Assembly: GCA_913043225.1 (NCBI GenBank)
Contig: CAJWLU010000003.1
Span: 32,001-96,000 of the forward strand
DNA from: an uncultured Acidobacteriota bacterium
GTDB lineage: Bacteria; Acidobacteriota; Vicinamibacteria; Vicinamibacterales; UBA8438
Direction: 5' to 3'
Length of the DNA stretch: 64,000 nucleotides
The position numbers and the translations under genes were made by a program. The notes below the pieces were generated by a model. The model ran no database searches, was not told the DNA's origin, and saw only the letters and a program-made list of their open reading frames with translations. Positions 28,679 through 64,000 of the stretch are shown here, one piece after another (position 1 is the first letter of the stretch; each line of letters begins with the position of its first letter).

Positions 28679-30286
28679 TCACTCCGTGCCCCGGTCGCTG
28701 ATGCCCCCGAGGTTTCGAAGCAGAGTCACCGTCTCCGGCCAGGCCTTCTCCGTGTTGGCCACGAAGACACCCTCGGCCACCATCAGTGGTGTCCATCCCA
28801 GGGCGTTCCTGGCGTTTATATCGGCGCCCTCGTCGAGAAGGTACTGCACGATCTGGTTCGCTCCGATCATCGCGGCGCCGTGCAGCGCCGTGCTGCCGTG
28901 CCACCGCATGTCTCCACGGTCGCGCTGGGCATCGAGCTGCGCCAGGTTGAGCGGGTGCCGCAGGAGCAGTGTCAGCCCGTCGCCTTCGAGCTCGGTGTCG
29001 CCGAAGTCGGTGGCCGTATAGACGTCGCCGCCGAGCGAGTGCGCCAGTCGTACCGCTTGCAGCCGGGTCGCCTCGGGGGTGCCGTTGTTCGGCCCGGGGC
29101 TCTCGCCGTCCCAGAAGCCGACGCCGGCCGCCGCCATCATCGGTGACACCCCCTGGGCGGTCGGTGACAAGACGTCGGCGCCGTGCTCGGCGAGGAGCTG
29201 CATGTAGTCGACGTCGGCATGCTTGGCGGCCAGGTAGAACGGCGTCGCTCCGACGAAGCTCAAAAAGTTCCGGCCCACCGAAATCCCAGACGGGCCGCGG
29301 ACCACGCCTAAGTCGACTTCGAACGGGACCTCCTCCCACTCAACGCGACGGTTCGGTTCGGCTCCTGACTCGAGCACCGCCCGCGCCAGCTCTAGGCTGT
29401 CGGTCATGCCGGTCGGCAGCGGTGGTCGTCCGGACCCCGGACGTCGAACCCACGAGAGTGCGTGCAGAATCGAGCCTCGTCGGTCTGGCAGGTTCGGGTC
29501 CCCACCCGCTTCGAGCAGCGTCAGGCCGAGCTCAAAATGAGCGTTCAGCACCGACGCCACGAGTGGCGTGGTCCCGTCACGAGCTGGAGCGTTAACGTCG
29601 GCGCCGGCGGCCAGCAGCGCTCGCACCGCGTCGATGTGCCCCTCGCGTACCGCGAATAGCAGCGGTGTCAGCGCGTCAGCCGACCGGGCCTCGACGTCGG
29701 CATCGGCGGCAGCCAGGGTCGTGATCGCCTCGGCGTTGCCGGCCTCGGCGGCCCACATCAACGCCGTCTGGTTCTGCCAGCTTTCGCTGGCGTTCACTGC
29801 CGCCCCGGCGGAGAGGAGCGCGTCGATTACGGGGACCCGGCCCGTGCGGGAGGCCAGCATCAAGGGGCTGTCGCCGCCCGGACTCGCGGTGTTGACCTCG
29901 GCCCCGGCGTCGAGCAGAAGCCGTACCATCCCTAGGCTGCCGTTGGTGGCGGCCAGCGTTAGCGGGGTTACCCCGTAGCGGTTCGTCGCCTCGGCGGTGG
30001 CGCCCGCCCCGACCAGTGCGCGGGCGATCTCGACCGCATCGGACTCGGCCGCCCAGTGGAGCGCGGTCGTGCCGTCCGGTCCGGAGGCATCGGGAGATGT
30101 ACCGTCGCCGAGAAGGCGTCGTACGGTACCGGTATCGCCCAGCTGGATCGCGTCGAGGAGCGCGAGCGCGGGGTCCTGTCCTGCCCTGGCGCCTGCCGCG
30201 GTCAGCGTCAGCGCCAGGGAGAGGAGGATCCGCGTCGAGAGGAAGCGCGGTCGGGTGTTGTTAGGCATTTCGAACCCCCGGGCCAT
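28679..30286 (-). CDS. Exported ankyrin-repeat protein (cassette 1)
   Basis: Repeated TALHWAA/TPL..AA/GADVN; signal peptide. Confidence 0.9.
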   Translation of the reverse strand: MARGFEMPNNTRPRFLSTRILLSLALTLTAAGARAGQDPALALLDAIQLGDTGTVRRLLGDGTSPDASGPDGTTALHWAAESDAVEIARALVGAGATAEATNRYGVTPLTLAATNGSLGMVRLLLDAGAEVNTASPGGDSPLMLASRTGRVPVIDALLSAGAAVNASESWQNQTALMWAAEAGNAEAITTLAAADADVEARSADALTPLLFAVREGHIDAVRALLAAGADVNAPARDGTTPLVASVLNAHFELGLTLLEAGGDPNLPDRRGSILHALSWVRRPGSGRPPLPTGMTDSLELARAVLESGAEPNRRVEWEEVPFEVDLGVVRGPSGISVGRNFLSFVGATPFYLAAKHADVDYMQLLAEHGADVLSPTAQGVSPMMAAAGVGFWDGESPGPNNGTPEATRLQAVRLAHSLGGDVYTATDFGDTELEGDGLTLLLRHPLNLAQLDAQRDRGDMRWHGSTALHGAAMIGANQIVQYLLDEGADINARNALGWTPLMVAEGVFVANTEKAWPETVTLLRNLGGISDRGTE

Positions 30287-30423
30287 AACCCGCTACCGAT
30301 GGCAAGGAACGACTATACAATATCTGGGCTGACGCACAGGACATCCGCTGGGAGGTCGGCGGCCGTCTAGCGAGGCCGACCGTTGACACGGAGGCCGCCT
30401 TGGCGGGATAAAGGAACTTCACC

Positions 30424-32790
30424 ATGCAGCATCGAGGTGTGGTTAACGCGGCGGTCGCGTCGCTGGCCGTCGTCGGTGTCTTCCTGCCCGTGGCGGTTGC
30501 GGCGCAGCTAGCTTCGGGCGGGGCCGGTCAGGTGACGGCCACGCTCGATCGCTATTGCGTCGCCTGTCACAACGACCGCCTCCGCACCGCTGAGCTGTCG
30601 CTCGAAGGGCTCGACCTGGCTCGGATTGGCGACCACGCCGAGGTTTGGGAGACGGTGGTGCGCCGGTTGCGGCTACAGACCATGCCGCCAATCGGCCGGC
30701 CTCGTCCCGAGGCCGAGGTCTACGATGCGGTCGCCAGCGAGCTTGAGGCGGCACTCGACCGGCACGCGGCCGACGCGCCCGACCCGGGGCGCCGACCGGC
30801 GTTGCACCGGCTCAGCCGGACCGAGTACCAGAACGCGGTGCGTGACCTACTGGCGTTGGACCACCTGCCGAAGGAGTTCGACATCGGCGTGATGCTGCCG
30901 GCCGACAACGCCACCAGCGGTTTCGACAACCTGGCTGATCTCCTCTTCGTCTCGCCCACGCTGATGGAGCGGTATCTTGGCGCTGCACGGAAGATCAGCC
31001 GTCTCGCGGTCGGCGACTCGACGATGCTTCCGATCGTCGATACCTATCAGCTGGACCGCAATCTCATCCAGGATCGCCACCTTGAGGGGATGCCACTCGG
31101 GACTCGTGGAGGTACTAGGGTTCAGACCTATCTCCCACTCGACGGCGAGTATCTGATCACGGTCGAATTCCCCGGCGCCGTCCGCCAGGAGAGCGATCTT
31201 GATGTCAGCGTCGATGGTGAGCGGGTGGCCCTCCTCACCGTGGGGCGGAACCCTCAGCAACGGGGTGCCAGCGGCGTGTTCACCTTCGAGGCCGAGCCGG
31301 ACGTCGAGACCCGGGTACCGCTCCAGGCTGGTCCACGCGACATCACGGTCGCCTTCTTGCCCAGAAGCGCAGCCGCCTCGGGAGGCGTGGTGCGGTCGGG
31401 TCGGGGCGGGCGAGGCCGTCAGCCATCGATTGCCAGTGTCATCGTGAGCGGGCCGTTCGGGGCTGATGGGGCGGGCGACACCCCCAGCAGGCAGCGTATC
31501 TTCAGCTGCCGGCCGGGTACCGGTGAAGCTTCTGCCGTCCGTGAAGCCTGTGCCCGCGAGATTCTGGCTACCACCGCCCGTCGGGCCTATCGCCGGCCGG
31601 TGAGCGAGGAGGACATCACGCGTCTCCTCCCGTTCTACGAGCAGGGAGTTGAGGAGGGCGGGTTCGAGCGTGGTATCCAGCGGGCGATCGAACGGGTGCT
31701 GGTCAGCCCCGAGTTCCTTTTTCGTATCGAGCGGGACCCGGCCGACGCCGCGACTGACGAGATCTACCAGGTGTCGGAGTTGGAGCTGGCCTCGCGGCTG
31801 TCGTTCTTCCTTTGGGCCAGCATTCCAGATGACCAACTATTGGAGCTGGCCAGTGCGGGGCGTCTGCGCGAGCCCGGTGTGCTCGACGAGCAGGTGCGGA
31901 GAATGCTCGCCGACCCACGGGCCGAGGCGCTGACCACCAACTTCGCCGAGCAGTGGCTGTTCTTGCGAGATATCGAACTGAAGGAGCCCGATGCCGGCTA
32001 TTTCCCATCGTTTGATGAGAACCTCCGTCAGGCATTCCGGCGTGAGATGGAGCTGTTCGTCGACAGCGTCCTGCGCGGGGACGACAGCGTGCTCGAGCTA
32101 CTGACTGCGGAACACACGTTCGTGAACGAGCGGCTCGCCAAGCACTACGGCATTCCCCACGTCTTCGGCAGCCGGTTCCGGCGGATCGAACTCGAGGAGG
32201 AGTCGCGCCGGGGGCTACTCGGCAAGGGGGCGATCTTGACGCTGACCTCCTACGCCAACCGCACGTCGCCGGTGCTGCGAGGGAAGTGGGTGCTTGAGAA
32301 CCTACTGTCGTCGCCGCCTCCTCCGCCGCCGCCTGATGTCCCGGCGCTTGACGAGACGACCGACGACGGTCGGCCGAGGTCGATGCGTGAGGCGATGGAG
32401 CAGCACCGCGCCAACCCGGCGTGCGCCAGCTGTCACGCGCAGATGGACCCGCTCGGGTTCGCGTTGGAGAACTTCGACGCTATTGGCCGCTGGCGGGTCC
32501 TGAGCGAGACGGGAAACCCGATCGACGCGAGCGGTCAGTTGCCGAGCGGCACCAGCTTCGAGGGTCCGGCAGGACTCCGTGATCAGATCCTGGCTTCGCC
32601 CGACCGGTTCGTCACCACCGTCGTGGACAAGTTGCTGATGTACGCCCTCGGGCGCAACATCGAGGCCCAGGACTACCCGACCATCCGTTCCGTCGTGCGG
32701 GATGCCGCGCGCGACCAGTATCAGTTTGCGACCATCGTCAACGGCATCGTCAAGAGCACTCCATTCCAGATGCGAAAGGCCCAGTCATGA
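30424..32790 (+). CDS. DUF1592/DUF1588/DUF1587/DUF1595/DUF1585 di-heme c protein (cassette 1)
   Basis: YCVACH...MPP; RLSRTEY; ELASRLSFFLW; SPVLRGKW; CASCH..MDPLGF. Confidence 0.9.
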   Translation: MQHRGVVNAAVASLAVVGVFLPVAVAAQLASGGAGQVTATLDRYCVACHNDRLRTAELSLEGLDLARIGDHAEVWETVVRRLRLQTMPPIGRPRPEAEVYDAVASELEAALDRHAADAPDPGRRPALHRLSRTEYQNAVRDLLALDHLPKEFDIGVMLPADNATSGFDNLADLLFVSPTLMERYLGAARKISRLAVGDSTMLPIVDTYQLDRNLIQDRHLEGMPLGTRGGTRVQTYLPLDGEYLITVEFPGAVRQESDLDVSVDGERVALLTVGRNPQQRGASGVFTFEAEPDVETRVPLQAGPRDITVAFLPRSAAASGGVVRSGRGGRGRQPSIASVIVSGPFGADGAGDTPSRQRIFSCRPGTGEASAVREACAREILATTARRAYRRPVSEEDITRLLPFYEQGVEEGGFERGIQRAIERVLVSPEFLFRIERDPADAATDEIYQVSELELASRLSFFLWASIPDDQLLELASAGRLREPGVLDEQVRRMLADPRAEALTTNFAEQWLFLRDIELKEPDAGYFPSFDENLRQAFRREMELFVDSVLRGDDSVLELLTAEHTFVNERLAKHYGIPHVFGSRFRRIELEEESRRGLLGKGAILTLTSYANRTSPVLRGKWVLENLLSSPPPPPPPDVPALDETTDDGRPRSMREAMEQHRANPACASCHAQMDPLGFALENFDAIGRWRVLSETGNPIDASGQLPSGTSFEGPAGLRDQILASPDRFVTTVVDKLLMYALGRNIEAQDYPTIRSVVRDAARDQYQFATIVNGIVKSTPFQMRKAQS

Positions 32791-34148
32791 TCATCTCCAA
32801 AATGGCGCTCCCGCGCCGGACGTTCCTGCGTGGCCTCGGGGCGAGCGTGGCGCTGCCGTTGCTTGATGCCATGGTGCCAGCCGCCACCGCGTTGGCCCAG
32901 ACGCCCGCCACTCCGGCGCCCCGGCTCGGTTTCGTCTATGTGCCCAATGGGGTCATCCAGGAGCAGTGGGTGCCGGCGGCCACCGGCTCCGGGTTCGAGC
33001 TGTCACCCATCCTGAGCCCACTGAGGCCGGTGCAGGATCGCCTCGTGGTCCTGAGCGGTCTGGCCCATCGTCAGGCCGACTCGTTCGGGGACGGGAACGG
33101 CGACCATCCGCGCGCCACGGCCGTGTGGCTGAGTGGAGTCCATGCCTGGGAACGGAATGGACGACTGGGGCCGACCAGCATCGAACTTGGCGTGACCGCC
33201 GACCAGATCGCGGCCCGGGAGCTCGGTCAGGCCACACCACTTCCATCACTCGAACTGGTGCTCGAGCGGCCGACCGCCATATCGTGCGATTCTGGCGACT
33301 GCTTCTACTCGAACACCATTACCTGGCGTGACGAGACGACGCCGCTCGAGATGGAGCCGCACCCGCGCGTCGTGTTCGAGCGGCTGTTTGGCGACGGCGG
33401 CAGCGCCGCCGACCGCAGAGCTCAGGCGCGTCACTCGGGCAGCATTCTCGACTCGGTGACCGAGGAAGCCCTGAACCTCGAGCGGACGCTGGGGGCCGGC
33501 GACCGGGGAAAACTGGCCGAATATCTCGACTCGGTCCGAGATCTCGAGCAGCGAATCGGCAAAGCCGAAGCCCGCGATGATCAGACCGAGATCGACCTAC
33601 CCGATCGTCCGATTGACATCCCGGAGGACTTCGAGGAATACGCCACACTTATGTTCGATCTGCTCGCCCTGGCCTACCAGGCTGATGTCACCCGAGTGAG
33701 TACGCTGATGATGGCCCGGGAAACCAGCCCGCGGACGTTTCCGCAGATCGGGGTGCCGGACCAGCATCACACCGTGTCGCACCACCGAAACGACCCAGAT
33801 TACATCGCCCGCAAGGCGAAGATCGACACCTACCACATCAGCTTGTTCGGGCGCTTCCTGGAGAAGCTCCGGGCCACCCCTGACGGCGACGGGAACCTGT
33901 TGGACCACTCGATGATCGTCTACGGCGGTGGTATCGGGAATGGCAACCTGCACGAGCACACAAACTTGCCGTGCCTCGTGGCGGGCGGTGGAACCGGACG
34001 GCTTAAGGGCGGGCGGCACCTGGCCTATCCGGAAGACACGCCGATGGCCAACCTGCTATTGACCGTGCTCGACAAGGCCGGGGTTCGTGCCGACAAACTT
34101 GGTGACAGTACAGGGCTCTTGAATACCGCCACGCTAGCGGACGTCTGA
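32787..34148 (+). CDS. DUF1552 (HXXSHH) Tat-exported protein (cassette 1)
   Basis: LPRRTFLRG Tat motif; YVPNG; HHTVSHH; GRLKGGRH; ATGA overlap with DUF1592 gene. Confidence 0.9.
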   Translation: MIISKMALPRRTFLRGLGASVALPLLDAMVPAATALAQTPATPAPRLGFVYVPNGVIQEQWVPAATGSGFELSPILSPLRPVQDRLVVLSGLAHRQADSFGDGNGDHPRATAVWLSGVHAWERNGRLGPTSIELGVTADQIAARELGQATPLPSLELVLERPTAISCDSGDCFYSNTITWRDETTPLEMEPHPRVVFERLFGDGGSAADRRAQARHSGSILDSVTEEALNLERTLGAGDRGKLAEYLDSVRDLEQRIGKAEARDDQTEIDLPDRPIDIPEDFEEYATLMFDLLALAYQADVTRVSTLMMARETSPRTFPQIGVPDQHHTVSHHRNDPDYIARKAKIDTYHISLFGRFLEKLRATPDGDGNLLDHSMIVYGGGIGNGNLHEHTNLPCLVAGGGTGRLKGGRHLAYPEDTPMANLLLTVLDKAGVRADKLGDSTGLLNTATLADV

Positions 34149-34150
34149 TC

Positions 34151-35224: not shown

Positions 35225-35266
35225 TTGATGATGGCCACATCATTGCTTGGGGTGTCCGGGCCAGTC

Positions 35267-37636: not shown

Positions 37637-37643
37637 CGAAGAG

Positions 37644-37678: not shown

Positions 37679-37712
37679 TCCGACCGGCGGCCCGTGATAC
37701 TTGATCTGGGCG

Positions 37713-38921: not shown

Positions 38922-39234
38922 AACGTGCTCCCGGCGATTCGTCCGTCCGGACGGTGTTTCGACCGCTGTTACAGCCACCCCGGCTGCGCCCTTGGCCGCG
39001 CGTGACCAGACGAACGACTTGCCGGTCTTGCTCAATCCCCACACCCCGAATCGCCACGCGCGCCTCCAGCCGGCCGACACCTGTGGGCGTCTAGCAGCCA
39101 GAGGAAGGGACGGCGTCTGTGCGGTCACGGTCGGTGGGAGGAGCACGCCGCCGGCAGGCGCGAAGACCAGGCGCGCTCGAATACGCATAGGGGTGTTGTC
39201 CGGCACCTAAGGGTTGGCGCGTATAATCGGGCCG

Positions 39235-40187: not shown

Positions 40188-40254
40188 TCATGCGTTTCGG
40201 GAACTAGATGCCTGGGGCAGAGCAGCAAGCGACATCATCGTTGCGGAGGTTTCC

Positions 40255-50246: not shown

Positions 50247-50586
50247 CGGGCTTTCTCCTGATCCTTCAGCCGAGTGAGTTCCAATCATACAGGTCGTGTG
50301 GTGCGAGCTGAGGGTTGCGGCTCGAAGAACAAGAACCGAGTCGCGTCGCGTGGTCGGTCATACAATGGGCGTTCCTGGTGCTCATTGCTCATGAACACGC
50401 GCCGACGGGGCGTCTCGCTGCTGCCGAGGCGCTGCGACGGTTCGGGTTGTCGGAGGACGCCGACGCCGCGTGAACGCGCAGGGGTTCGGCGGCAGTTTCG
50501 CATCTACGTGCCGCAGCTACTCGACAAGAGCCTGGCCGACCTGGATTAGGCGCGACGCTCACCACTCACACCGGAGGAATACATCT

Positions 50587-51674: not shown

Positions 51675-53252
51675 TTAGGGCTGGTCGGTGGCGCCGAGCG
51701 GGACGTCGCGCAGTCGTTCCTGCACGGTGCCCGCGATTCCGAGACTGGTGTCGGCGCCGAGCCGCGCCAGCAACTCAGCGGTTTCCGGCCAGCTCTGGAA
51801 CTGGAACGACTGCTTGGCTCCCTCCGCCATTCGGTAGGCGGTGCGGCCGCGGAAGTCGCGGGCATCGATGTCGGCACCCTGAGCGACGAGATACTCTACG
51901 ACCTCATTCAGACCACGGAAGGTCGCGCCGTGTAACGCCGTAAAGTCGGCCTCGTTGGTGGCGTTGACGTCCGCCCCCGCCTCTAGCAGGAACGCCACGG
52001 CCGCCTCAGCACTACGCGCCCGCACCCCGCGTGGTTCGCGCGGCGTGTAGGTCGCCTTGCCCAGTCCGGCTGCCGCCATCAACGGGGTGGTGCCGTCGTC
52101 AGTGGCCAGGGTGAGATTGGCGCCGCCGTCAATCAGGGCCTGCAGCACCTCGACGCTGCTCGACTGGAAGCTTGGGATCACGCTGTAGATCAGGCTGGGG
52201 GCGCCATTCATCTCGAAGGCGGCGACCCAGAGCGGCGTGGCGCCGCGCAGATCACCGGTACCCGGAGCAAACGGTTCAAAGGCGCCCTTCTTGGGATAGC
52301 CGATGTAGAACATCAGCATCGCCGAACTCGTGATCCGCGCGTTCGGCTCGGCGCCCCGGGAGAGCAGATCCTGGACGAGGCCAAGCCGGGCGTCGGCGCG
52401 AAGCCGACCGCCTCCGATCGGGCCGTGGCGCCGGGTCCACTCTGAGACCCAGGTCGACACCGAGCCGGCGGCTGCGTGGAGGGCGCTGAAGCCGCCCATC
52501 CAGCTGTTCGCGTCGGCGCCCTCTTCGAGCAGGAAGTGCGCGAATGGCGCTCGGCCTGCTGCGATGGCGAATGCCAGGGCGTGAGTGCCGTCCCCGCTGG
52601 GGGTGTTGACGTCGACGCCTGCCTCGAGGAGCGCTCGACCCATCTCGATGTCACCGGTGCGCGCGGCGAACATCAACGGTGTGAAGCCGGGGTTCGCCTC
52701 GATCGTGGGATCGGCGCCGCGCGCTAGCAGCAGACGCACGATCTTATGGTGGGGTGCCGCCAGCGCCCACATCAGCGCGGTGCTGTTGGTGTCGCGCGTT
52801 ACCGCGTTCACCTGCGCCCGGTGGTCGAGCAGCAGCTGGACTAGCTCGACGTTGCCGGTGTGGGAGGCGGTCATCAGCGGCGTCAGTCCGCTGGTTTGCA
52901 CCGCGGCTGCGTTGGCCCCGGCGTTGAGGAGCGTCGTGGCCATGGCCACGCTCGCGTTCTCGGCGGCCCGCTCCAGCGGGGTCACCCCGTGGTCGTCGGC
53001 CAGGTTTGGGTCGGCTCCGGCCGCCAGCAGGCCAGCTGCCGCGTCGAGAGCGTTCCAGTGTGCAGCCCAGAGCAACCCTGTAGTGCCGTCGGCGCGAGCG
53101 ACGTCGGGGTTGCCCCCCTCGTCGAGCAACGTCTGCACCTCGGCCCATTGCTGGTCGGCGGCAAACTGGACGAGGGCGGGGGTCTGGGCCGTCACCGGCG
53201 TGGCGACCGTGACGACGGCGAGCGAGAGAAGCGCGGAAAGCAGGCGAGGCAT
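51675..53252 (-). CDS. Exported ankyrin-repeat protein (cassette 2, divergent)
   Basis: Multiple ankyrin repeats; signal peptide ending VTA-Q. Confidence 0.9.
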   Translation of the reverse strand: MPRLLSALLSLAVVTVATPVTAQTPALVQFAADQQWAEVQTLLDEGGNPDVARADGTTGLLWAAHWNALDAAAGLLAAGADPNLADDHGVTPLERAAENASVAMATTLLNAGANAAAVQTSGLTPLMTASHTGNVELVQLLLDHRAQVNAVTRDTNSTALMWALAAPHHKIVRLLLARGADPTIEANPGFTPLMFAARTGDIEMGRALLEAGVDVNTPSGDGTHALAFAIAAGRAPFAHFLLEEGADANSWMGGFSALHAAAGSVSTWVSEWTRRHGPIGGGRLRADARLGLVQDLLSRGAEPNARITSSAMLMFYIGYPKKGAFEPFAPGTGDLRGATPLWVAAFEMNGAPSLIYSVIPSFQSSSVEVLQALIDGGANLTLATDDGTTPLMAAAGLGKATYTPREPRGVRARSAEAAVAFLLEAGADVNATNEADFTALHGATFRGLNEVVEYLVAQGADIDARDFRGRTAYRMAEGAKQSFQFQSWPETAELLARLGADTSLGIAGTVQERLRDVPLGATDQP

Positions 53253-53378
53253 GGGTCCCTCGTTATTGGTTGGAGCTTCCGGCACTATAGCGCAGACTTG
53301 CCGTGGGGGGCACGCTGATCGGCAGGAGCTGAGGTAACATACGCGAGCTACCTCGTCAATCTAGGGATAGGGAGCGCG

Positions 53379-55739
53379 ATGCAGCTGGTATGGCGAACGG
53401 CCGTGCGAAGCGTCTGGACGTTGGGTGTGGCGGTATGTGTCCTCGCCGCCGTCGCACCGGCGCGGGCGCAGCTGGCGACCTCCGACGGCCAGGGGTTGGT
53501 CCAGGACTACTGCGTACGCTGCCACAATGATCGCCGACTCACGGGCGGACTGTCGCTCGAGGGGGTTCAGGCGGACGATCCAACCGCGCACGCGGAGATT
53601 TGGGAGAAGGTCCTCCGGAAGCTGCAGGCCCGCTCCATGCCGCCGGTCGGATCGCCTCGTCCAGACGAGGTTGTTTACGCCCAGGTGATCCGTGCGCTGG
53701 AGCTCGCGATCGATCGCGAGGCGGATGCCACCCCGCGCCCAGGTCGAACGGCCTCTTTCCATCGACTCAGTCGCACCGAGTATCAGCACGCCGTCCGCGA
53801 TCTGCTAGATCTCGAGGTGGACGTGGGTGGCTGGTTGCCGGGAGACGACGCAGCCTATGGCTTCGACAACAACGGCGACGTGCTGTCGATGTCGCCCGTG
53901 CTGCTCGATGCGTATCTCACGGCGGCAAGCCGGATCAGCCGTCTGGCCGTCGGCGATATGTCGGCCGGCGCCGATGTGGCCAGCTATCGGTTCTCGAAGT
54001 CGCTCCTGCAAGAAAACCGGATCGAGGGGCTGCCGTTCGGTTCGCGTGGTGGGGGTGCCGTGCGCCATTACTTCCCGCTGAACGGGGAGTATGTGCTGAA
54101 ACTCGATCTGGCCGGTCCGAGGACGCAGTCCGAGACCATCGAGATTCGCCTCGACGGCGTCAAAGTCGGCGAGGTTGCCTCCAACGCTCGCCCACCCTTT
54201 GGTGGCGAGGCGATAGGCACTCAGGTGCGGATCCAGGTCGAGGCGGGCGCGCATACTCTCGGTGTCGTTTTCCTCAAGAGAATGCTCGCCCCCGAGGGCC
54301 GCTTCCCCGCCTACTTCCCGTGGGCCAACAGTGCGGTCTTCTCGACCACTTTTGGAGCCAAGACGTATCTCCATCTGGACGGGATCGAGATCACGGGGCC
54401 GTTTGAGCCGACCGGTCTCGGCGATACACCGAGTCGTCGCCGCATCTTCAGCTGTCGGCCCGGAGGCGACGTTCAAGCCGAGGTGTGCGCCCGCAGCATC
54501 TTCGAGCGGCTGGCCCGCCGCGCCTACCGACGCCCAGCGACTGAGGACGACCTCGAGGTGCTGCTCAGCTTCTACCGCGACGGGCGCGCCGAGGGCGGGA
54601 GCTTCGACGATGGCGTCCGTGTTGCCCTCAGCCGTCTTCTGGTCGACCCCGACTTCTTGTATCGGGCCGAGCTGGATCCGCCGGGCGTCACCCTGCCGTA
54701 TCGGTTGTCCGATCTAGAGCTGGCATCCCGGCTGTCGTTCTTCCTGTGGAGCAGCCTGCCGGACGACGAGCTGCTCTCAGTGGCTGAAGAGGGACGGCTG
54801 TCGTCGCCTGCGGAGTTGGCAACTCAGGTACGACGGATGCTGGCAGACGAACGGGCCACGGCACTCGTCTCCGATTTCGCCGCACAGTGGCTATTTCTGC
54901 GCAATCTGCGGATGGTCTCACCGGACCAGTTCCAGTTCCCGGAGTGGGACGACGACCTCCGGGCGGCGATGGCGCGTGAGACTGAGCTCTTCCTCGATCA
55001 CCAGAGACGCGAGAATCGTCCGGTGGCCGAGCTGCTGATCGCCGACTACACGTTCGTCAATGAGCGCCTGGCTCGCCACTACGGGCTCGACGACATCTAC
55101 GGCACGCAGTTCCGACAGGTGGAGCTCTCGAACCCGCGACGAGCTGGCCTGCTCGGGCACGCGAGCATCCTGACGGTAACGTCGATGCCGAATCGCACGT
55201 CGCCGGTGCTCAGGGGGAAGTGGTTGCTCGAGAATCTGCTGGGCATGCCGCCGCCCGCGCCGCCGCCTGACATACCCGAGCTGCCAGAGAACGAGCGGGG
55301 CGACGCGCCACGTTCGATTCGCGAGCGGCTCGAGCAGCATCGCGAGAACCCGGTCTGCGCGAGCTGCCACGCCACGATGGATCCGCTGGGCTTCGCGTTG
55401 GAGCCGTTCGACGCCATCGGACGTTGGCGCACGCGCGATGATGGTCTGCCGGTGGATGCGCGCGGCGCACTGGTCGATGGCACGGAGATTGACGGCCCTC
55501 GTGGACTGCGCGAGATGCTCGTCACCCGACAGGACGAGTTCGTGCGGACGTTCATCGAGAAGCTGATGACCTTCGCGCTCGGTCGTGGCGTCGAGTACTA
55601 CGACATGCCGGCCGTCCGGAAGATCCTGCGCGAGACCGCCGATCAGGGTCACACGTGGGAGTCGGTGATTCTCGGCATCGCGAACAGCGTACCGTTCAAG
55701 ATGCGGGAGCGACGCGACGGTGCCATCCCGGTCAACTGA
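53379..55739 (+). CDS. DUF1592-type di-heme c protein (cassette 2)
   Basis: YCVRCH...MPP; ELASRLSFFLW; CASCH..MDPLGF. Confidence 0.9.
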   Translation: MQLVWRTAVRSVWTLGVAVCVLAAVAPARAQLATSDGQGLVQDYCVRCHNDRRLTGGLSLEGVQADDPTAHAEIWEKVLRKLQARSMPPVGSPRPDEVVYAQVIRALELAIDREADATPRPGRTASFHRLSRTEYQHAVRDLLDLEVDVGGWLPGDDAAYGFDNNGDVLSMSPVLLDAYLTAASRISRLAVGDMSAGADVASYRFSKSLLQENRIEGLPFGSRGGGAVRHYFPLNGEYVLKLDLAGPRTQSETIEIRLDGVKVGEVASNARPPFGGEAIGTQVRIQVEAGAHTLGVVFLKRMLAPEGRFPAYFPWANSAVFSTTFGAKTYLHLDGIEITGPFEPTGLGDTPSRRRIFSCRPGGDVQAEVCARSIFERLARRAYRRPATEDDLEVLLSFYRDGRAEGGSFDDGVRVALSRLLVDPDFLYRAELDPPGVTLPYRLSDLELASRLSFFLWSSLPDDELLSVAEEGRLSSPAELATQVRRMLADERATALVSDFAAQWLFLRNLRMVSPDQFQFPEWDDDLRAAMARETELFLDHQRRENRPVAELLIADYTFVNERLARHYGLDDIYGTQFRQVELSNPRRAGLLGHASILTVTSMPNRTSPVLRGKWLLENLLGMPPPAPPPDIPELPENERGDAPRSIRERLEQHRENPVCASCHATMDPLGFALEPFDAIGRWRTRDDGLPVDARGALVDGTEIDGPRGLREMLVTRQDEFVRTFIEKLMTFALGRGVEYYDMPAVRKILRETADQGHTWESVILGIANSVPFKMRERRDGAIPVN

Positions 55740-55785
55740 CCGGAGCGAGTGAACATCAAGGGTCGGGTAGCTACAGGAGTCCCTC

Positions 55786-57138
55786 ATGTACATCACTAGC
55801 AAGGCGTTGCCACGACGCACGGTGCTCCGTGGCCTGGGCGCCACCATCGGGTTGCCGCTCCTCAACAGCATGGTGCCGGCGATGACCGCTCTGGCGCGGA
55901 CCGCCGCCGATCCGGTCAGGCGTTTCGCGACCGTGTATGTCGGTAATGGCGCCGCGGTTGGCTATTTCACCCCCGAGCAGGAGGGGGCTGGCTACGAGCT
56001 GACACCGATTCTTGAGCCGTTGGCACCGATGCGCGATCGGGCGCTGGTGCTCACCGGCATCGACAATCCACCCGCACTAGCCCTCGAGGGCGAGCCACGT
56101 GGTGGACATGGCCGGATCCCGTCTGCGTTCATGAGCGGCATTCACGCCAAGCCCACCATCGGCGCCGACTATCAGTCCGGCATCACGATCGATCAGATCG
56201 CTGCCAACCATCTTGGAGACGACACCCAGCTGCGGTCTCTCGAGCTGTCCATGGACTCGCCGGAGTTTGGCGGGACCTGCGACACGGGTTTTGCCTGCGT
56301 CTACACCAACACGCTGTCCTGGCGCGGACCGACCACGCCGCAGCCGATGCAGAACAACCCGCGGCTGGTGTTCGAGCGCATGTTCGGCGAGGGTGGGACC
56401 ACCGATCCTGCCGTGCGCCTGGCCCGCTGGCGGCAGCGGGCCAGCATTCTCGACTCGGTGCGAGACAAGGTCGACGGGTTGGGAGGCACCCTGGATCCGG
56501 AGGACCGAGCCAAGCTCGACGAGTATCTCGAGGCGATTCGCAACATTGAGCGGCGCATCCAACTGGCCGAGGAGCAGAGCGACCGGGAGATTCCCGAGGT
56601 GATCCAGCCGGCCGGGGTGCCTGCGACTTTTGCCGAGCACGCGGAGCTGATGTTTGATCTTCAGGTGCTGGCCTTCCAGGCCGACCTCACGCGCGTTACC
56701 ACGTTCATGCTCGCTCGCGAGCTGAGCGGCCGCGCCTACCCCGAGATCGGGGTATCTGAGGGCTTCCATGCCATTTCGCATCACGGCAACAACCCGGAGA
56801 AGATCGCTGACCAGGCCAAGATCAACGCCTATCACACGGCTAAGGTCGTCTACTTCCTTGAGCGGCTGCAGTCGGTGCCTGACGGCGACGGGACGCTACT
56901 TGACAACAGTCTGGTGCTGTTCGGCAGCGGGATGGGAAACAGCAACGAGCACGATCCACGTCAGCTTCCGCTAGTCCTGGCCGGCGGGGTGGGCGGTCGT
57001 CTGAAGGGTGGACGCCACATTCGCTATCCGTCGGGTACGAGGCTGACCAACCTGCACATGACGTTGCTCGCCAAGCTCGGCGTCCCGGTCGAGTCGATCG
57101 GCGACAGTACCGGCCATCTCGAGGTGGGTCTGCTGTGA
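55786..57138 (+). CDS. DUF1552 (HXXSHH) Tat-exported protein (cassette 2)
   Basis: LPRRTVLRG; FHAISHH; GRLKGGRH. Confidence 0.9.
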   Translation: MYITSKALPRRTVLRGLGATIGLPLLNSMVPAMTALARTAADPVRRFATVYVGNGAAVGYFTPEQEGAGYELTPILEPLAPMRDRALVLTGIDNPPALALEGEPRGGHGRIPSAFMSGIHAKPTIGADYQSGITIDQIAANHLGDDTQLRSLELSMDSPEFGGTCDTGFACVYTNTLSWRGPTTPQPMQNNPRLVFERMFGEGGTTDPAVRLARWRQRASILDSVRDKVDGLGGTLDPEDRAKLDEYLEAIRNIERRIQLAEEQSDREIPEVIQPAGVPATFAEHAELMFDLQVLAFQADLTRVTTFMLARELSGRAYPEIGVSEGFHAISHHGNNPEKIADQAKINAYHTAKVVYFLERLQSVPDGDGTLLDNSLVLFGSGMGNSNEHDPRQLPLVLAGGVGGRLKGGRHIRYPSGTRLTNLHMTLLAKLGVPVESIGDSTGHLEVGLL

Positions 57139-58679
57139 GCCGTCTGCGCACGAGACTGATCGCGTTGGCGTTGGCCGGGGTCGGTCTAGCCTCGGGTGCG
57201 CGAGCGGCCGTCGACGCGCCACTGGTCGAGGCAGCTTCTCGCGGCGACGCGGGGGCGGTCCGAGTGCTGCTCGACGAGGGAGCGGATCCGGACGAACGCC
57301 AGGGTGATGGCGCCACGGCGTTGCATTGGGCCGTCCACCGGGGCGATGTCTCGATGGTTGAGACGCTTCTGGCGACCGGCGCCACAGTAGACGCCGTCAA
57401 CGAGCTGGAGGTGACGCCGCTGCTCCTCGCCGCGTCGAACGGGCAGGTCGCGGTGGTTGATCGACTACTGGCTGCCGGCGCAGACCCGGAGGGTGGCATA
57501 ACAGACCGCGAGCGTCCCCTCATGCGCGCGGCGTGGGTCGGTAGCACGGCCGTGGTGCGGGCGCTGCTCGACGCTGGCGCCGATCCGAACGGGATGGAGC
57601 CGGCGCGTCAGCAGACTGCGCTCATGTGGGCCGTATCCGAGCGCCATCCCGACGTGGTCCAGCTCCTGCTCGATCGTGGCGCGGACGTCGCCGCTGCCAC
57701 GGTGACGCATCGGACTGGGCGGGCGGCCACACGTGACATCGTAGGCTACACGCCGTTGCTCTTCGCGGCGCGCGTAGGCGATGCCGAGTCACTAAGGCTA
57801 CTGATCGATTTCGGGGCGGATCCCAACGCCGCGTCGAGCGACGGGATGAGCGCGCTGATTCTGGCCACCGTGCGCGGTTATCCGGATGTTGCCATGCAGC
57901 TTCTCGACGCCGGCGCCGATCCGAACGCGGCGGATCCTGGCTATTCGGCTCTGCACTGGGCGGCAGGCTGGTGGGAGACCACACTCACCACCACCGACTT
58001 CCGTCCGGACCGCGAAGGCAACGACGAGTGGAACAGCCTGCCCGGGTTGACCGAAGGGAAGGCCGAGCTGGTCGCGGCGCTCCTGGCTACGGGGGCCGAT
58101 CCGAACTTGCCGATGGAGCGGACGCCACCCAGAGCGGGCGCCACCCGGAATCCCAGCATGCCCGAGCTGCGCGGCGCCACCCCGTATCTGCTGGCCGCCG
58201 CGGCCGGCGACGCGGAGGTGATGCGGCTGCTGGCGGGTGCAGGGGCGGATCTGACGCTGACTACCGACGCCGGCGCTACCCCGTTGATGGCGGCGGCCGG
58301 TTTTGGCCGAATGCTCGGTGAGAACACCGTCGACGAGGAGCGTATTATCGAGGCTGCTCGCCTCGCGCTCGAGCTTGGGGCCGACCTCAGCGCGACCGAC
58401 GAAGTGGAGAACACGGCTTTGCACTACGCGGCGTATCATCGGCTGACGTCACTCGTCGGGCACCTGGTCGAGCAGGGGGCCGTGCTGGGGCAGCGGAATA
58501 AGTTCGGCGAAACGCCGCTTTGGTTGTCTGAGCTCGCGATTCAGTTTTACGGCGGCGGGACATACCAGATCGTGCCCACGGTGACCGGTGATCTCTTGCG
58601 TACCCTAGGCGCCGATCCCACGACGCCGTTCTACGATCGGGCCCGCCCTCGCGACTGGCCCGATCTCCAGCTTCAGTAG
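57135..58679 (+). CDS. Exported ankyrin-repeat protein (cassette 2, downstream)
   Basis: Ankyrin repeats; signal peptide; GTGA overlap with DUF1552 gene. Confidence 0.9.
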   Translation: MSRLRTRLIALALAGVGLASGARAAVDAPLVEAASRGDAGAVRVLLDEGADPDERQGDGATALHWAVHRGDVSMVETLLATGATVDAVNELEVTPLLLAASNGQVAVVDRLLAAGADPEGGITDRERPLMRAAWVGSTAVVRALLDAGADPNGMEPARQQTALMWAVSERHPDVVQLLLDRGADVAAATVTHRTGRAATRDIVGYTPLLFAARVGDAESLRLLIDFGADPNAASSDGMSALILATVRGYPDVAMQLLDAGADPNAADPGYSALHWAAGWWETTLTTTDFRPDREGNDEWNSLPGLTEGKAELVAALLATGADPNLPMERTPPRAGATRNPSMPELRGATPYLLAAAAGDAEVMRLLAGAGADLTLTTDAGATPLMAAAGFGRMLGENTVDEERIIEAARLALELGADLSATDEVENTALHYAAYHRLTSLVGHLVEQGAVLGQRNKFGETPLWLSELAIQFYGGGTYQIVPTVTGDLLRTLGADPTTPFYDRARPRDWPDLQLQ

Positions 58680-58688
58680 CTCATCCCG

Positions 58689-59009: not shown

Positions 59010-59111
59010 GCCGCCCGCCCCTGCCCGTTCGGCACCGCTGACCGAGGGTGCCAGCCGGGGAGAGTGTCCACGATCGGTTGACACCGGTCGCCGCTGCGCG
59101 AGAGCCTTCCG

Positions 59112-60482
59112 ATGGCCGTGGACCAGACATCTCACGTCTCGCCGCTCACTCTTCCCCGGTTCGCGCGGTTCTACGCCCCGCTGGCGGCTACCAGTCTGCT
59201 GCTGACGTTGACCAACCCGCTGCTGGCGAGCGCGCTCTCGCGCAACGTGAATCCGGCCATCGCTCTCGCCGGGTTTGGCGTCGCCTTCTCGTTGTGCGGC
59301 GTCCTCTACAGTCCATTACTGGTAGGGCAGCAGGTGGCCGCGACGCGCCTTCTCGACGGGCACCGGTTTGGTCCGGTCTTGGCGTTCTGGGTTCGGATTG
59401 GCGCACTGCTGTCGGTCGTGACACTGTTGATCGGAACGACCCGCTTGGGCGATTGGGTGCTCGGCGGCCTAATCGGCGTTTCGGGCGACGTCTTCGAGGA
59501 GGCCAGCACCGCGCTCCTGCTGCTGTCGCCGGTCCCAGTGTTGACGGCGGTCCGGGCGGCTCACCAGGGACGATTGGTGGCCGGGCATCGGACCCAGCCG
59601 ATTGCGGCGGCGACCGGAGTCCGTACCGCGGTCCTGGCGTTGGTGGCGGTCTCGCTGACCCTGCTCACATCGGGTGGGGCCTGGGTGGGTGGCGCGGCGT
59701 TCTCGGTGGGGCTGTTGGTCGAGACGGTGCTGGTGGTATTGGCCCGGTCCGGGGTTGGTGCTCCGGCCGGTCCGGTGGCTTCCGAAGAGGGAGCCCTAGG
59801 GGTGAGCGAAGCGAGGCTACTCCGTTTTTCGACGCCGCTCGCGGTGAACACCCTACTCTGGTGGAGCACGCCGCTCCTGATCAACAGCGTGCTCGCACGT
59901 TCTCCGTTCCCGGCTGAGGCGATCGCGGCGTTCATCGTGGTCGAAGCGGTGGCTTGGTTTCTGGTGGCTCCGGTGGGCCAACTGCAGCACGTGGGCATCG
60001 CGCTCGTCGACTGTAAGCCGGCCCACCGTGCCGTGCAGATGTGGTCCCTTGCCCTGGCGATGGGGGTCGCGCTGCTGATTGCGGTGATCTCTACGCCTCC
60101 GGTGCGGCGCACCCTGCTCGGGGCGGTGTTTGGCCTCGACGCCGGCCTGCTCGGTGACATCGGGGCGGCGTTGCCGTTTGCCGTGGCCTATCCGCTACTC
60201 TACGCCCACCGGCAGTACTACCAGGGGCTCTTCACCCGCTGCGGGCGCCCCGACGCCGTCGGATGGGGTGGGGCGCTCCGGGTGGTGACGGTCTTCCTGG
60301 TGGCGGTGGCGGCGCTCGGGCCGCTCGGCCACGTGGGAGCCACGCTGGGGGTTTTGGCCGCGGTCGCCGGCCTGGCCCTGGAAGGCGTGTTTCTTGAACG
60401 CACGGCGCGGCGGCAGGTGATGACGGTCCTCCCGGAGTCTGAACCGGCTGTCCGGCAGCCGCTGTCGGAGAGCGTGACATGA
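59112..60482 (+). CDS. MATE/MOP-superfamily (ANKH-like) multi-TM transporter
   Basis: Two similar halves beginning RFYAPLA and RFSTPLA; about 12 hydrophobic segments. Confidence 0.65.
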   Translation: MAVDQTSHVSPLTLPRFARFYAPLAATSLLLTLTNPLLASALSRNVNPAIALAGFGVAFSLCGVLYSPLLVGQQVAATRLLDGHRFGPVLAFWVRIGALLSVVTLLIGTTRLGDWVLGGLIGVSGDVFEEASTALLLLSPVPVLTAVRAAHQGRLVAGHRTQPIAAATGVRTAVLALVAVSLTLLTSGGAWVGGAAFSVGLLVETVLVVLARSGVGAPAGPVASEEGALGVSEARLLRFSTPLAVNTLLWWSTPLLINSVLARSPFPAEAIAAFIVVEAVAWFLVAPVGQLQHVGIALVDCKPAHRAVQMWSLALAMGVALLIAVISTPPVRRTLLGAVFGLDAGLLGDIGAALPFAVAYPLLYAHRQYYQGLFTRCGRPDAVGWGGALRVVTVFLVAVAALGPLGHVGATLGVLAAVAGLALEGVFLERTARRQVMTVLPESEPAVRQPLSESVT

Positions 60483-61156
60483 AGTTTTCCGAGGCCAGTC
60501 GATCTTGCGGACGACGGTTCATGGCCGTCGTGACCACCATGCTTGCGATCGGATGCGGAGCGCCGGCCTCCGTTCCGCCGACCGACAACACCGTCCAGAG
60601 CCATCTGCCCGACGGCTATGCGCTGCGTCTCGATCGGCCGAATCGCCAGCGCAGCGATTTCGGCGCCTCGTTCGAGGCGGGGCGCCTGGAGATCGAGACC
60701 GGGCCGGCCGGCATCCTCTATGAGCCCGACCGAGAGATCGAAGCGTCGAGTTTCCGAGTGGGGGCGACTTTTACCCAGCTCGCGGCGCCCATGGGGCATC
60801 GGGAGGGGTACGGGTTGTTCGTGGGAGGGCAGGGTCTGGCCGGGCCTGATCAGCGTTACTTGTATTTCCTGGTGCGTGCCGATGGCCGGTATCTCGTGAA
60901 GCGTCGCGACGGGGAGCGCACCACCGAGCTTTCTGGCGGCTGGCAACCGTCAGAGGCGGTCAGTGTGCCAGCCGAGCCGGGGGCCGAGGTCATGAACGAC
61001 CTGGCGGTGGAGGCGACCGATGGACGGCTGCGACTGTTATGCAACGGCGAGACGGTGGCTGAGCTGGCGGTCGAACCGGCCGATGTGACCGGGGTGTTCG
61101 GGGTGCGAGTGAACCACAACCTACGGGTGCGTGTGGACGATTTCGGTACTCGATGA
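60479..61156 (+). CDS. Putative lipoprotein, ConA/DUF1080-like beta-sandwich
   Basis: LAIGC lipobox; HREGYGLFVGG, YLYFLVR and GVRVNHNL; start may be 60521. Confidence 0.6.
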   Translation: MKFSEASRSCGRRFMAVVTTMLAIGCGAPASVPPTDNTVQSHLPDGYALRLDRPNRQRSDFGASFEAGRLEIETGPAGILYEPDREIEASSFRVGATFTQLAAPMGHREGYGLFVGGQGLAGPDQRYLYFLVRADGRYLVKRRDGERTTELSGGWQPSEAVSVPAEPGAEVMNDLAVEATDGRLRLLCNGETVAELAVEPADVTGVFGVRVNHNLRVRVDDFGTR

Positions 61157-61232
61157 GTTGCCCGCCTCCCCGGTGTTGCGCCCGGTGGTGGCGGTATACT
61201 GAAACCCGACGGTACAACAGCAGGAGGACGTC

Positions 61233-63632
61233 ATGCACGCGCGACTCGCGGTGATCGCGGCGGTGGCGGCCGGCCTCGTGGCGCCGGACGCCGGGTGGCT
61301 CGGGATCCAGGCCGCCGGACAGCCATCCGTAGAGGTGCCCTCGCGCGCCCTCCTCGATCAGTACTGCGTCACCTGTCACAACGACCGTCTGCAGACCGCC
61401 GAGCTGTCGCTCGATGGCGTGGACGTCTCGGATCCGGCCGCGCATCGTGACGTGCTCGAACGGGTCGTACGGAAGCTCCGTAAGGGGCAGATGCCGCCCG
61501 AGGGCCGTCCTCGACCGCCGGCGGACCAGATCGAACAGTTCGTGAGCCGGCTCGAAGTGTCACTGGATCGGGTGGCCGAGTCGAGATCCGACCCGGGCCG
61601 CGTGGCGTCCCGCCGGCTCAATCGAGCCGAGTATGTCAGCGTCATCGAGGACCTGCTGGCACTGGAGGTCAATGGCGAGGAGCTTCTGCCGTCCGACATG
61701 GCTGGCTTCGGGTTTGACAACAACGCCGAGGTGCTGTCGATCACGCCCGGGCTGATGTCGCGCTATATCGCCGCCGCCACGAAGATCAGTCGGGCGGCGA
61801 TCGGGAGTCCGGACATCCGTCCGGTGATGCAGCTCTACGAATTGGGCTACGAGCGCCGCGACGTCCGGGCCGGCGAGGCTCTGCCGTTCGCGACCCATGG
61901 TGGTCTGGCCGTTCGGCATCACTTCCCCCTGGACGGGGAGTATCTGTTCGCCATCCGCCTGAAGCGGAACGAGACCATCGAGACGATCGACGGTATCGCC
62001 GAGGACGAGCATCAGATCGAGCTGCGCATCGACCACGCGCTGGTCGAGCAGTTTGCCATCGGCGGTCGCTATCCTGGGCCGGATCCAGGGCAGCTCATCG
62101 CGGTGCCCGAGGATGACGTCGAGGGGCAGCGGCTCCATGAGTATCGGATGACGGCCGACCACGCGCTCGAACTCCGCGTCCCGGTCGAGGCGGGTACCCG
62201 GCTGGTGTCGGTGTCTTTCACCGATGCTGCCCCGTCACCTCATCCCAGCCCGCAGCTGCCAGGCATCGACAAGGTCTTCGTGTCGGGCCCCTTCGATGGT
62301 CGGGTGCCCGAGGACACGCCGAGTCGTCGTCGCATCTTTGTCTGCCAGCCTGAATCGGCGGTCGACGAAGAGCCGTGCGCGCGACAGATTCTGGCGTCGC
62401 TTGCGCGGCGAGCCTATCGACGGCCGGTGCAGACCGAGGACATCGATCCGCTCCTGGGGCTCTATCGTGAGGGTCGTGTAGAGCGGGACTTCGAGTTTGG
62501 GATCGAGCGGGCCCTCGAGGCGCTGCTCGCGATGCCCGAGTTCCTCATGCGGATAGAGGAGCATCCGGTGGACACGGCGCCGGGTGGGGTGTATCCGGTC
62601 AGCGATTTAGAGCTAGCCACCCGCCTGTCTTTCTTCCTCTGGAAGAGTCTTCCGGACGAGGAGCTGCTCGGGCTGGCTGAGGAGGGCCGGCTGCGAGAGT
62701 CTGGGGTGCTCGCGGCGCAGGTGGCCCGGATGCTTGGGGACGAGCGGGCCACGCGGTTCATGCACGACTTCGCCGGTCAGTGGCTGCACCTCCGCAACAT
62801 CGACGACCAGGCGCCAGACGGGGCACTCTTTGCCGGGTTCAATGATTCGCTGCGGAAGGCCATGGTCACCGAGACCCAGCTGTTCTTCCGTAGCCAGGTG
62901 AGCGCCGATCGACCGGTCACCGAGCTCCTGTCAGCTAATTACACGTTCCTGAATGAGCAACTCGCCCGCCACTACGGTGTCGATGATTTGTATGGCAGCC
63001 ACTTCCGCCGTTACGAGTGGCAGGACGATCGGCGTCACGGGCTCCTTGGCCAGGCCAGTTTGTTGACCGTGACCTCCTACGCCAACCGTACCTCGGTGGT
63101 GCTGCGCGGGCTGTGGGTGCTCGAGACGCTGCTGGGCGCGCCCCCGCCGCCCCCCCCGCCCAACGTGCCGCCGTTGCCTGAGAGCGACCGTCGAGCCCCC
63201 ACGTCGCTGCGGGAACGGATGGAGCAGCACCGGGCGAGCCCCGTGTGCGCCTCCTGTCACACGCAGATGGATCCGCTCGGGTTCGCCCTCGAGCACTACG
63301 ACGCGATCGGCCGATGGCGGGAGACCGACGGCGGAGCGCCAATCAACGCCACGATCACCTGGCAGGGAGACACCATCGACAGCCCGCGCGCGTTCCGGGA
63401 GATGCTGCTCGGATCCGGCGATGAAGTCGTACGCACGATTACCGAGAAGCTGATGACCTACGCGCTCGGTCGCGGAGTGGATCATGCCGATGCCCCCGCG
63501 GTGCGCCGGATCGTGCGGGAGCTTGCCGCCTCTGATCACCGCTGGTCCGCTTTGGTGCTCGGGATTGTCGAGAGCGATCAGTTCCAGCGGCGCCGTGCCC
63601 CGGAAGCCGTCGACGCGACCGCCGCCCAGTAG
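61233..63632 (+). CDS. DUF1592-type di-heme c protein (cassette 3)
   Basis: YCVTCH...MPP; ELATRLSFFLW; CASCH..MDPLGF; AGGAGG RBS. Confidence 0.9.
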   Translation: MHARLAVIAAVAAGLVAPDAGWLGIQAAGQPSVEVPSRALLDQYCVTCHNDRLQTAELSLDGVDVSDPAAHRDVLERVVRKLRKGQMPPEGRPRPPADQIEQFVSRLEVSLDRVAESRSDPGRVASRRLNRAEYVSVIEDLLALEVNGEELLPSDMAGFGFDNNAEVLSITPGLMSRYIAAATKISRAAIGSPDIRPVMQLYELGYERRDVRAGEALPFATHGGLAVRHHFPLDGEYLFAIRLKRNETIETIDGIAEDEHQIELRIDHALVEQFAIGGRYPGPDPGQLIAVPEDDVEGQRLHEYRMTADHALELRVPVEAGTRLVSVSFTDAAPSPHPSPQLPGIDKVFVSGPFDGRVPEDTPSRRRIFVCQPESAVDEEPCARQILASLARRAYRRPVQTEDIDPLLGLYREGRVERDFEFGIERALEALLAMPEFLMRIEEHPVDTAPGGVYPVSDLELATRLSFFLWKSLPDEELLGLAEEGRLRESGVLAAQVARMLGDERATRFMHDFAGQWLHLRNIDDQAPDGALFAGFNDSLRKAMVTETQLFFRSQVSADRPVTELLSANYTFLNEQLARHYGVDDLYGSHFRRYEWQDDRRHGLLGQASLLTVTSYANRTSVVLRGLWVLETLLGAPPPPPPPNVPPLPESDRRAPTSLRERMEQHRASPVCASCHTQMDPLGFALEHYDAIGRWRETDGGAPINATITWQGDTIDSPRAFREMLLGSGDEVVRTITEKLMTYALGRGVDHADAPAVRRIVRELAASDHRWSALVLGIVESDQFQRRRAPEAVDATAAQ

Positions 63633-63666
63633 TGTCGGCCGAAAGCAAAAAACTCCGAGTGCAACC

Positions 63667-64000
63667 ATGTTCATCACCAAGACGCATTTGCCCCGCCGGA
63701 CCGTACTTCGCGGACTTGGCGCCAGCCTCGCGCTGCCGCTGCTCGACGGTATGGTACCGGCGCTCACCGCTCAGAGCCGGACGGCCGCCGCACCGGTGAA
63801 ACGGTTCGGCGTGTTCTACGTGCCCAACGGCATGTCGATGCCCTATTGGTACCCGGCCACTGAGGGTCCGCTCGACGAGATGCCGCCGATCTTGCGGTCG
63901 CTTGAGCCGTTTCGCGACCGGGTGTTGATCTGCGGCGGGCTCGACGACGAGTCGGCAAACCTGGTGAAGGGAGGCGGCGACCACGCGCGGTCGGCCGGAA
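63667..64000 (+). CDS. DUF1552 Tat-exported protein (cassette 3), truncated by window end
   Basis: MFITKTHLPRRTVLRGLGASLALPLLDGMVP...FYVPNGM...GGGDHARS; absent from the ORF track because no stop falls in the window. Confidence 0.85.
   Translation, partial: MFITKTHLPRRTVLRGLGASLALPLLDGMVPALTAQSRTAAAPVKRFGVFYVPNGMSMPYWYPATEGPLDEMPPILRSLEPFRDRVLICGGLDDESANLVKGGGDHARSAG

Follow-up and report, generated by a model that had tools for sequence, protein, structure and literature searches.

Putatively cognate ankyrin-repeat proteins accompany DUF1592–DUF1552 gene pairs in an uncultured Acidobacteriota bacterium

We identified exported ankyrin-repeat proteins that, judging from ortholog comparisons, are cognate partners, one per pair, of gene pairs encoding a DUF1592 cytochrome with two heme-binding motifs and a twin-arginine DUF1552 protein; this is the main new result of the analysis. 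The pair itself has been published and is uncharacterised. The accessible text of He et al. 2017 (PMC5615132) describes a Group III PSCyt3/PSD4 gene adjoining a DUF1552 gene, with its function given as unknown. This pair has the same domains and gene arrangement as the copies analysed here, and the Group III features (PSCyt3 with PSD4, often PSD2/PSD3/PSD5, and an adjacent DUF1552 gene) were present in all three of them. However, an ankyrin appears neither in that text nor in its seven readable supplements, whereas the trio described here, from Acidobacteriota, has a one-to-one ankyrin. Elsewhere, a table on stress response lists a DUF1552 gene (PMC2754498), and a protein table includes a DUF1592 protein that carries CBM2 (PMC6004670). 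An ankyrin partner of the pair was not found in the open-access papers searched, and the matched third component is apparently undescribed. Combining observed linkage, pairing and motifs with predicted folds, we suggest that the trio may be a periplasmic heme-wired metallo-oxidoreductase with a matched ankyrin subunit, a reading whose chemistry we infer and to which we give about even chances.

The window, i.e., the whole 64,000-nucleotide stretch of DNA that was analysed, contained three DUF1592–DUF1552 pairs, as the preliminary description had reported; ORFs of all three cassettes were intact and their families were confirmed by Pfam. Copy 1 consists of a 788-aa large subunit (30424..32790, + strand; Pfam, two CxxCH motifs and a predicted model) and a 453-aa DUF1552 protein with a twin-arginine N-terminus (32787..34148, +; Pfam and a predicted model), and its partner ank1 is an exported 535-aa ankyrin-repeat protein (28679..30286, −; Pfam ankyrin matches). 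Copy 2 comprises a 786-aa large subunit with two CxxCH motifs (53379..55739, +; Pfam and motif count) and a 450-aa DUF1552 protein (55786..57138, +; PF07586), with the exported ankyrin ank2 (536 aa; 51675..53285, −) upstream and the exported ankyrin ank3 (514 aa; 57135..58679, +) downstream. The GTG start of ank3 at 57135 overlaps the TGA of copy 2 DUF1552 by 4 bases, bearing out an earlier observation, and ank3 is translationally coupled to copy 2. In copy 3, a 799-aa large subunit with two CxxCH motifs (61233..63632, +; Pfam and motif count) precedes a DUF1552 gene with an ATG start at 63667, of which only the beginning (63667..64000, +) lies in the window; the gene extends beyond the window end, encodes 449 aa in full and is complete on the contig. 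All three large subunits matched PSD3, PSD5, PSD4 (DUF1592), PSCyt3 and PSD2 above curated cut-offs, with a weak Pfam match to cytochrome c at the N-terminus, and motif counting verified that each has exactly two CxxCH motifs. DUF1552 copies 1 and 2 matched PF07586 with E ~1e-90, and the three ankyrins showed Pfam ankyrin repeats and hydrophobic N-termini.

The cassette had been described as triplicated, which did not hold: the window copies are three of 26 old paralogs, with pairwise identities of 46–49% for large subunits, 48% for the two complete DUF1552 proteins and 34–37% for the ankyrins, and a recent tandem triplication was rejected. In the source genome (3.85 Mb, 96% complete), blastp detected 32 genes for the large subunit, 26 for DUF1552 and 23 for related ankyrins. 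Pfam likewise gave 26 DUF1552 matches and placed ankyrin repeats in 24 frames, the additional one being a single repeat match on contig C20. A large subunit was found immediately 5' of DUF1552 in 26/26 units, and 22 of the 23 family ankyrins (22/24 counting all ankyrin genes) adjoined a unit. Chance placement gave a mean of 0.3 adjacent ankyrins over the whole genome and 1.1 within the same contig, and none of 2000 placements reached 22. Two divergent units had no ankyrin. Two other families were considered as additional partners and rejected: family x (87 copies), a candidate fourth partner, was adjacent in 4/87 cases, a value equalled in 199/2000 same-contig placements, and family y (9 copies) was adjacent in 2/9, equalled in 148/2000.

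Gene order is not a reliable guide to which ankyrin belongs to which pair. For copy 1, the ankyrin adjoining the ortholog in locus L114 was closest to ank1 (66% identity vs 47% for the next). For ank2, the five best matches (66–71%) occurred in five loci from five genera (L144, L166, L182, L191 and L216), where the five top matches for the cytochrome (73–80%) and DUF1552 (82–87%) of copy 3 also lay, and in all five the ank2 ortholog divergently adjoined the copy-3 ortholog. The best matches of ank3 were in loci shared with those of copy 2. At the DNA level, genome G005 carried cytochrome 2, DUF1552 2 and ank3 together on contig C66, with ank2 beside copy 3 on another contig, and ank2 also adjoined copy 3 in G009; in G011 the best ank2 matches were ~385 kb from the best copy-3 match, and G001, of the same genus, matched the window gene order over three contigs. 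These comparisons identify ank2 as the cognate partner of copy 3 despite its position upstream of copy 2. The divergent ankyrins previously noted upstream of copies 1 and 2 are correctly located, but the assignment of ank2 to copy 2 was not upheld. Copy 2, ank3 and two other genes separate ank2 from copy 3, and the simplest reading is that the copy 2 block was inserted between ank2 and its pair. The two other genes, at 59112-61156 (+), encode an ANKH/MATE-like membrane protein (weak match) and a lipoprotein-like protein without an assigned family.

A similar separation was found elsewhere in the source genome, where an orphan ankyrin on contig C1 matched an ankyrin-less unit on C9 (via loci L120 and L169). 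We further compared 25 of the own DUF1552 proteins with 136 foreign triples, using an ortholog cut-off of at least 70% identity. For 14 of the 25 such an ortholog was present, and tracing the orthologs' ankyrins back to the source genome gave 14 distinct own ankyrins, of which 12 adjoin the pair and 2 are displaced; the other 11 had no close ortholog and were uninformative for pairing. The 14/14 distinct assignments support an earlier proposal that the ankyrin is a copy-specific factor. The persistence of a partner despite separation speaks for a requirement of every pair for its own ankyrin, although it does not show physical contact.

We further checked the occurrence of these genes in other genomes. 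Of 12 genomes belonging to the same genus or family, one had no match and the other 11 had 10–47 each; eight genomes of the same order had 0–13 each, and of 401 genomes sampled from the phylum that includes genome G021, 8 matched with one copy each. The genome collection supplied 80 loci, in which a cytochrome was upstream of DUF1552 in 80/80 and an ankyrin adjoined the pair in 72/80 (62/65 where the flanks were full). For another 100 loci, chosen among the 150 top-scoring matches listed, an ankyrin was adjacent in 83 and absent in 14, with no cytochrome call in 3; both sets are biased toward the same branch, contain kin and possibly overlap. Thus, an enrichment of ankyrins beside these pairs, posed earlier as a prediction, was observed in related loci as well as in the source genome. 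The orientation of the ankyrin varied (downstream, upstream or divergent relative to the pair). On a tree of 78 DUF1552 proteins built with a quick method, the position label changed 16 times (minimum 3, shuffled 30). Since the label changed at least several times on this tree, the linkage appears to outlive rearrangement.

Outside Acidobacteriota, 15 loci were found. An ankyrin was present in 7 of them (the Novosphingobium plasmid L238, L242 and five loci of genome G022), all with the cysteine pair corresponding to C167–C172, which forms the cysteine-pair loop of copy 1 DUF1552. The remaining 8 (Planctomyces L239, Chondrinema L240, Sphingobium L241 and L243–L247) had no ankyrin, and the cysteine pair was absent in 7/7 that could be aligned. 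Window DUF1552 proteins have this loop, in contrast to the planctomycete and Bacteroidota examples checked. Thus, among the loci examined, the ankyrin is confined to the DUF1552 branch with the cysteine-pair loop, and their co-occurrence may reflect a single evolutionary event. The 8 ankyrin-less loci, together with the two divergent own units, indicate that the pair can exist without an ankyrin. A metagenome scan with a divergent DUF1552 yielded only 4 close loci, with an ankyrin in none. A complete trio has a cultured carrier, Novosphingobium sp. KACC 22771, on the plasmid mentioned above (L238).

The predicted model of the copy 1 large subunit (94 sequences; pLDDT 92.9, pTM 0.93) consists of a cytochrome c domain, PSD3, a beta-sandwich insert (~204–349), a helical PSD5/PSD4 core, a second heme motif and PSD2. 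Heme 1 has the motif C45/C48/H49 with M87, and heme 2 the motif C667/C670/H671 with H661; both CxxCH motifs, M87 and H661 were conserved in 94/94 aligned large subunits. Heme 1 therefore has the class I cytochrome c arrangement of CxxCH and a downstream Met in all sequences. For heme 2, the Met of the C-terminal MDP had been taken as ligand, which we correct: this residue (M674) was present in 70/94, whereas the His six residues before the second CxxCH was present in 94/94, and the invariant H661 is the likely ligand. Genes for cytochrome c assembly occur in the source genome. The beta-sandwich insert resembled CBM35/CBM6 jelly-rolls (Z 9.3 in tied rows, rmsd 3.0–3.5, 103–113 aligned residues), a likeness between a model and a common fold that is no proof of sugar binding. 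It was the most variable part of the large subunit (36% mean identity vs 59–63%). In a fold search with the whole cytochrome, only the insert and the cytochrome c domain were matched and the helical core was barely covered.

The DUF1552 model (143 sequences; pLDDT 89.8, pTM 0.92) matched sulfatases, nucleotide pyrophosphatases and phosphoethanolamine transferases (Z 17.1, rmsd 4.0, 264 aligned, 11% identity), and all 50 listed structural matches were hydrolases or transferases of the sulfatase/phosphatase superfamily. DUF1552 is thus predicted to share the core alpha/beta fold of the alkaline phosphatase/sulfatase superfamily. PDB sequence searches found nothing at E 1 with single proteins and nothing under E 0.3 with profiles; local hhalign alignment with sulfatases was weak (P 0.017) and left the nucleophile region unaligned, and global hhalign gave no alignment. 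Four histidines were nearly invariant (H107 in 141/143, H328 and H332 in 143/143, H389 in 142/143) and were also present in 14/14 aligned DUF1552 proteins from loci outside Acidobacteriota, whereas H333 of the HXXSHH family name was not kept in distant examples. H107 opens the helix after strand 2 within an HxRxxxxLTG motif, spaced as in the sulfatase motif, and presumably corresponds to the nucleophile position of the superfamily; we take H328, H332 and H389 to be its first metal site. The register with sulfatases was deduced from spacing and secondary structure. In this register, DUF1552 differs from the superfamily in that HxRxxxxLTG replaces the C/S-x-P-x-R nucleophile motif (CSPSRASILSG in the L207 sulfatase), so that a His stands in place of the nucleophile, and V-P-N-G and G-S-G stand where the Asp and Asp-His/Asn metal ligands are expected, the carboxylate ligands being lost; identity is 8–15%, and the partner is a heme protein. 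We predict that DUF1552 holds one metal ion on the four histidines, given this register and the geometry of the superfamily. The fold match and conserved histidines favour a metal-type site, consistent with an earlier suggestion of a metallo-subunit.

The N-terminus of DUF1552 contained a twin arginine in 147/147 sequences and an AxA-like site in 92/147, and tatC is present in the genome. The twin-arginine segment (32787-32900 and its paralogs) was more conserved than mature DUF1552, with a conservation of 0.86 for residues 10–32 vs 0.65 for the mature part. It was modelled with pLDDT 79–88, and its linker was 14 residues long in 127/147. This segment may stay on the protein, or a partner may bind it.

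In 156 triples (Neff ~105), the top covariation between cytochrome and DUF1552 involved R424–S223 and S428–E227, an i,i+4 helix pattern on which mutual information (MI; Z 12.3 vs shuffled maximum 8.3) and mean-field DCA agreed. This helix–helix signal supports an association of the two proteins, as supposed earlier. MI also tied the DUF1552 site loops (98–106, 162–169, 313 and 392) to loops of the sandwich and to the insert loops of the ankyrin, but ancestry can cause such links, and DCA on the same triples neither repeated them nor gave a clear direct ankyrin contact. Partial correlations of ankyrin distances were 0.32 with the beta-sandwich, 0.23 with the heme-2 region and 0.12 with DUF1552 (109 triples); neither these mirror correlations nor cognate pairing prove contact, since linked genes share history. 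When complexes of DUF1552 (45–443), the beta-sandwich and the ankyrin were predicted and the ankyrin scored, the median was 0.65, compared with 0.58 for a control with DUF1552 replaced and 0.00 and 0.00 for unrelated partners; this prediction was given no weight in either direction.

In the C-terminal half of the ankyrins the insert loops are long and variable, and M177 was conserved in 80/80. A CxxC tail was rejected as a general feature (0/3 window ankyrins, 2/80 aligned, where foreign rows end at profile ends and tails could be missed), and NCBIfam gave only generic ankyrin matches far under cut-offs, which does not support an effector role. According to citing papers, ankyrin genes beside, and needed for, a heme enzyme include AnkB for KatB in Pseudomonas (PMC12754779, PMC2830190) and Cj1386, which delivers heme to KatA in Campylobacter (PMC11442138). 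By analogy, the ankyrin could act only transiently in the periplasm, helping its own copy to assemble or mature, rather than being a subunit of the working enzyme, which would also fit its tolerance of displacement and divergent transcription and its absence from one family branch. We consider this unlikely. As far as these reports go, AnkB and Cj1386 each serve a single catalase, whereas window-type ankyrins (~500 aa with insert loops) form about two dozen matched paralogs, and a protein that carries heme would have no need of a separate copy for each. Furthermore, window-type ankyrins appear to lack a conserved heme ligand, since near-invariant Tyr, His or Cys residues were not seen in them except at the usual positions of the repeats, and their variable insert loops would suit recognition of a variable surface.

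In the preferred reading, a heme-wired oxidoreductase with a bound ankyrin, DUF1552 would fold and be loaded with metal (Cu, Fe or Mn) before Tat carries it out of the cytoplasm, and the cytochrome and ankyrin would exit by Sec. A helical hairpin of DUF1552 (~220–265) may dock on the cytochrome core, and a substrate under the cysteine-pair loop would be oxidised at the metal, with electrons passing to heme 2 (His661/His671), heme 1 (His49/Met87) and the respiratory chain. The ankyrin would stay bound, most likely on the variable beta-sandwich, its insert loops helping to fix the pocket, and the 10–47 paralogs per genome could be a panel for different small organic substrates. The DUF1501 and PSCyt2/PSD1 module of PVC bacteria, for which the accessible text proposes electron transfer, similarly combines a twin-arginine enzyme-like protein with a cytochrome and has additional protein-binding domains, for which a part in assembly or in recognising the substrate is proposed; it differs in its Pfam families and in having Big_2 and WD40 partner domains rather than ankyrin (PMC3542564).

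A copper monooxygenase can be fed by a cytochrome domain, and four-His sites suit Cu or non-heme Fe. Electrons may thus flow in reverse, the hemes feeding a histidine-bound metal that activates O2 or H2O2, as in an oxygenase or peroxidase, a reading also compatible with the CBM-like insert and with the enrichment of PSCyt genes in oxic layers given in the accessible text of He et al. (PMC5615132). We regard it as distinctly unlikely, because an outer His/Met heme and a probable His/His heme near the core would suggest a downhill path from the metal, and no reductase gene was a constant neighbour. Least probable is that DUF1552 is a metal-dependent hydrolase or transferase with His107 as nucleophile and the heme protein as scaffold or redox switch: its structural matches agree with this, as do neighbours of the metallo-beta-lactamase fold (10/80 loci) and cyclases (12/80), but the Cys/Ser/Thr nucleophile and carboxylate ligands are absent, and the branch keeps both heme motifs, ligands included, without exception, which would be hard to account for in a plain scaffold.

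The other common neighbour families in the 80 loci were NHL propellers (16), PQQ dehydrogenase-like proteins (16) and outer-membrane barrels (14); with the commonest reaching 16/80 loci, none was constant as an electron acceptor or substrate gene. These varied periplasmic catabolic neighbours fit scavenging, and no substrate is named by them. As a tentative extension of the oxidoreductase reading, the trio could represent a new heterotrimeric class of periplasmic redox enzyme with a four-histidine phosphatase fold, a two-heme wire, and an ankyrin reader and CBM-like insert setting specificity, serving as a main Vicinamibacterales route for oxidising diverse organics. If so, redox chemistry would join the alkaline-phosphatase superfamily and bacterial ankyrins would gain a specificity role. 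The PSCyt/PSD–DUF1552 families have lacked a function since they were named, yet 10–47 copies are carried by 10 of the 11 other genomes of the host family among the 12 searched. The analysis supplies concrete residues for mutation, and co-expression would need the right ankyrin, about which gene order can mislead.

Several additional genes and units were observed. A divergent subfamily (L037, L038, L047 and L049; G000 contigs C8, C35 and C37) had seven di-heme large subunits and a single DUF1552 protein, the latter without the cysteine pair and without an ankyrin; possibly, one catalytic subunit is shared by several cytochromes. An exported family with 87 copies in the genome, represented at 34151-35224 (+), 39214-40155 (+), 40255-41283 (+) and within 6231-11263, had an Arg-Cys and an E-Y-A-C-H-E-G-N motif that were invariant in 73 aligned sequences. 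It had no Pfam or NCBIfam match, its atlas neighbours were all hypothetical and it was not enriched beside the cassettes. Behind ank1, 26501-28648 (−) encodes an exported 715-aa protein with one CxxCH, 9 copies in the genome and no Pfam match, and genes resembling it lie beside units in L073, L084, L114, L122, L183 and L233. A sulfatase-family lipoprotein at 47724-50288 (−) does not have the usual C/S-x-P-x-R motif. Just past the window end (L032:6014-8823), a small exported cytochrome c'-like gene (weak match) overlaps copy 3 DUF1552 and is followed by an epoxide hydrolase and then a twin-arginine glyoxalase-fold gene.
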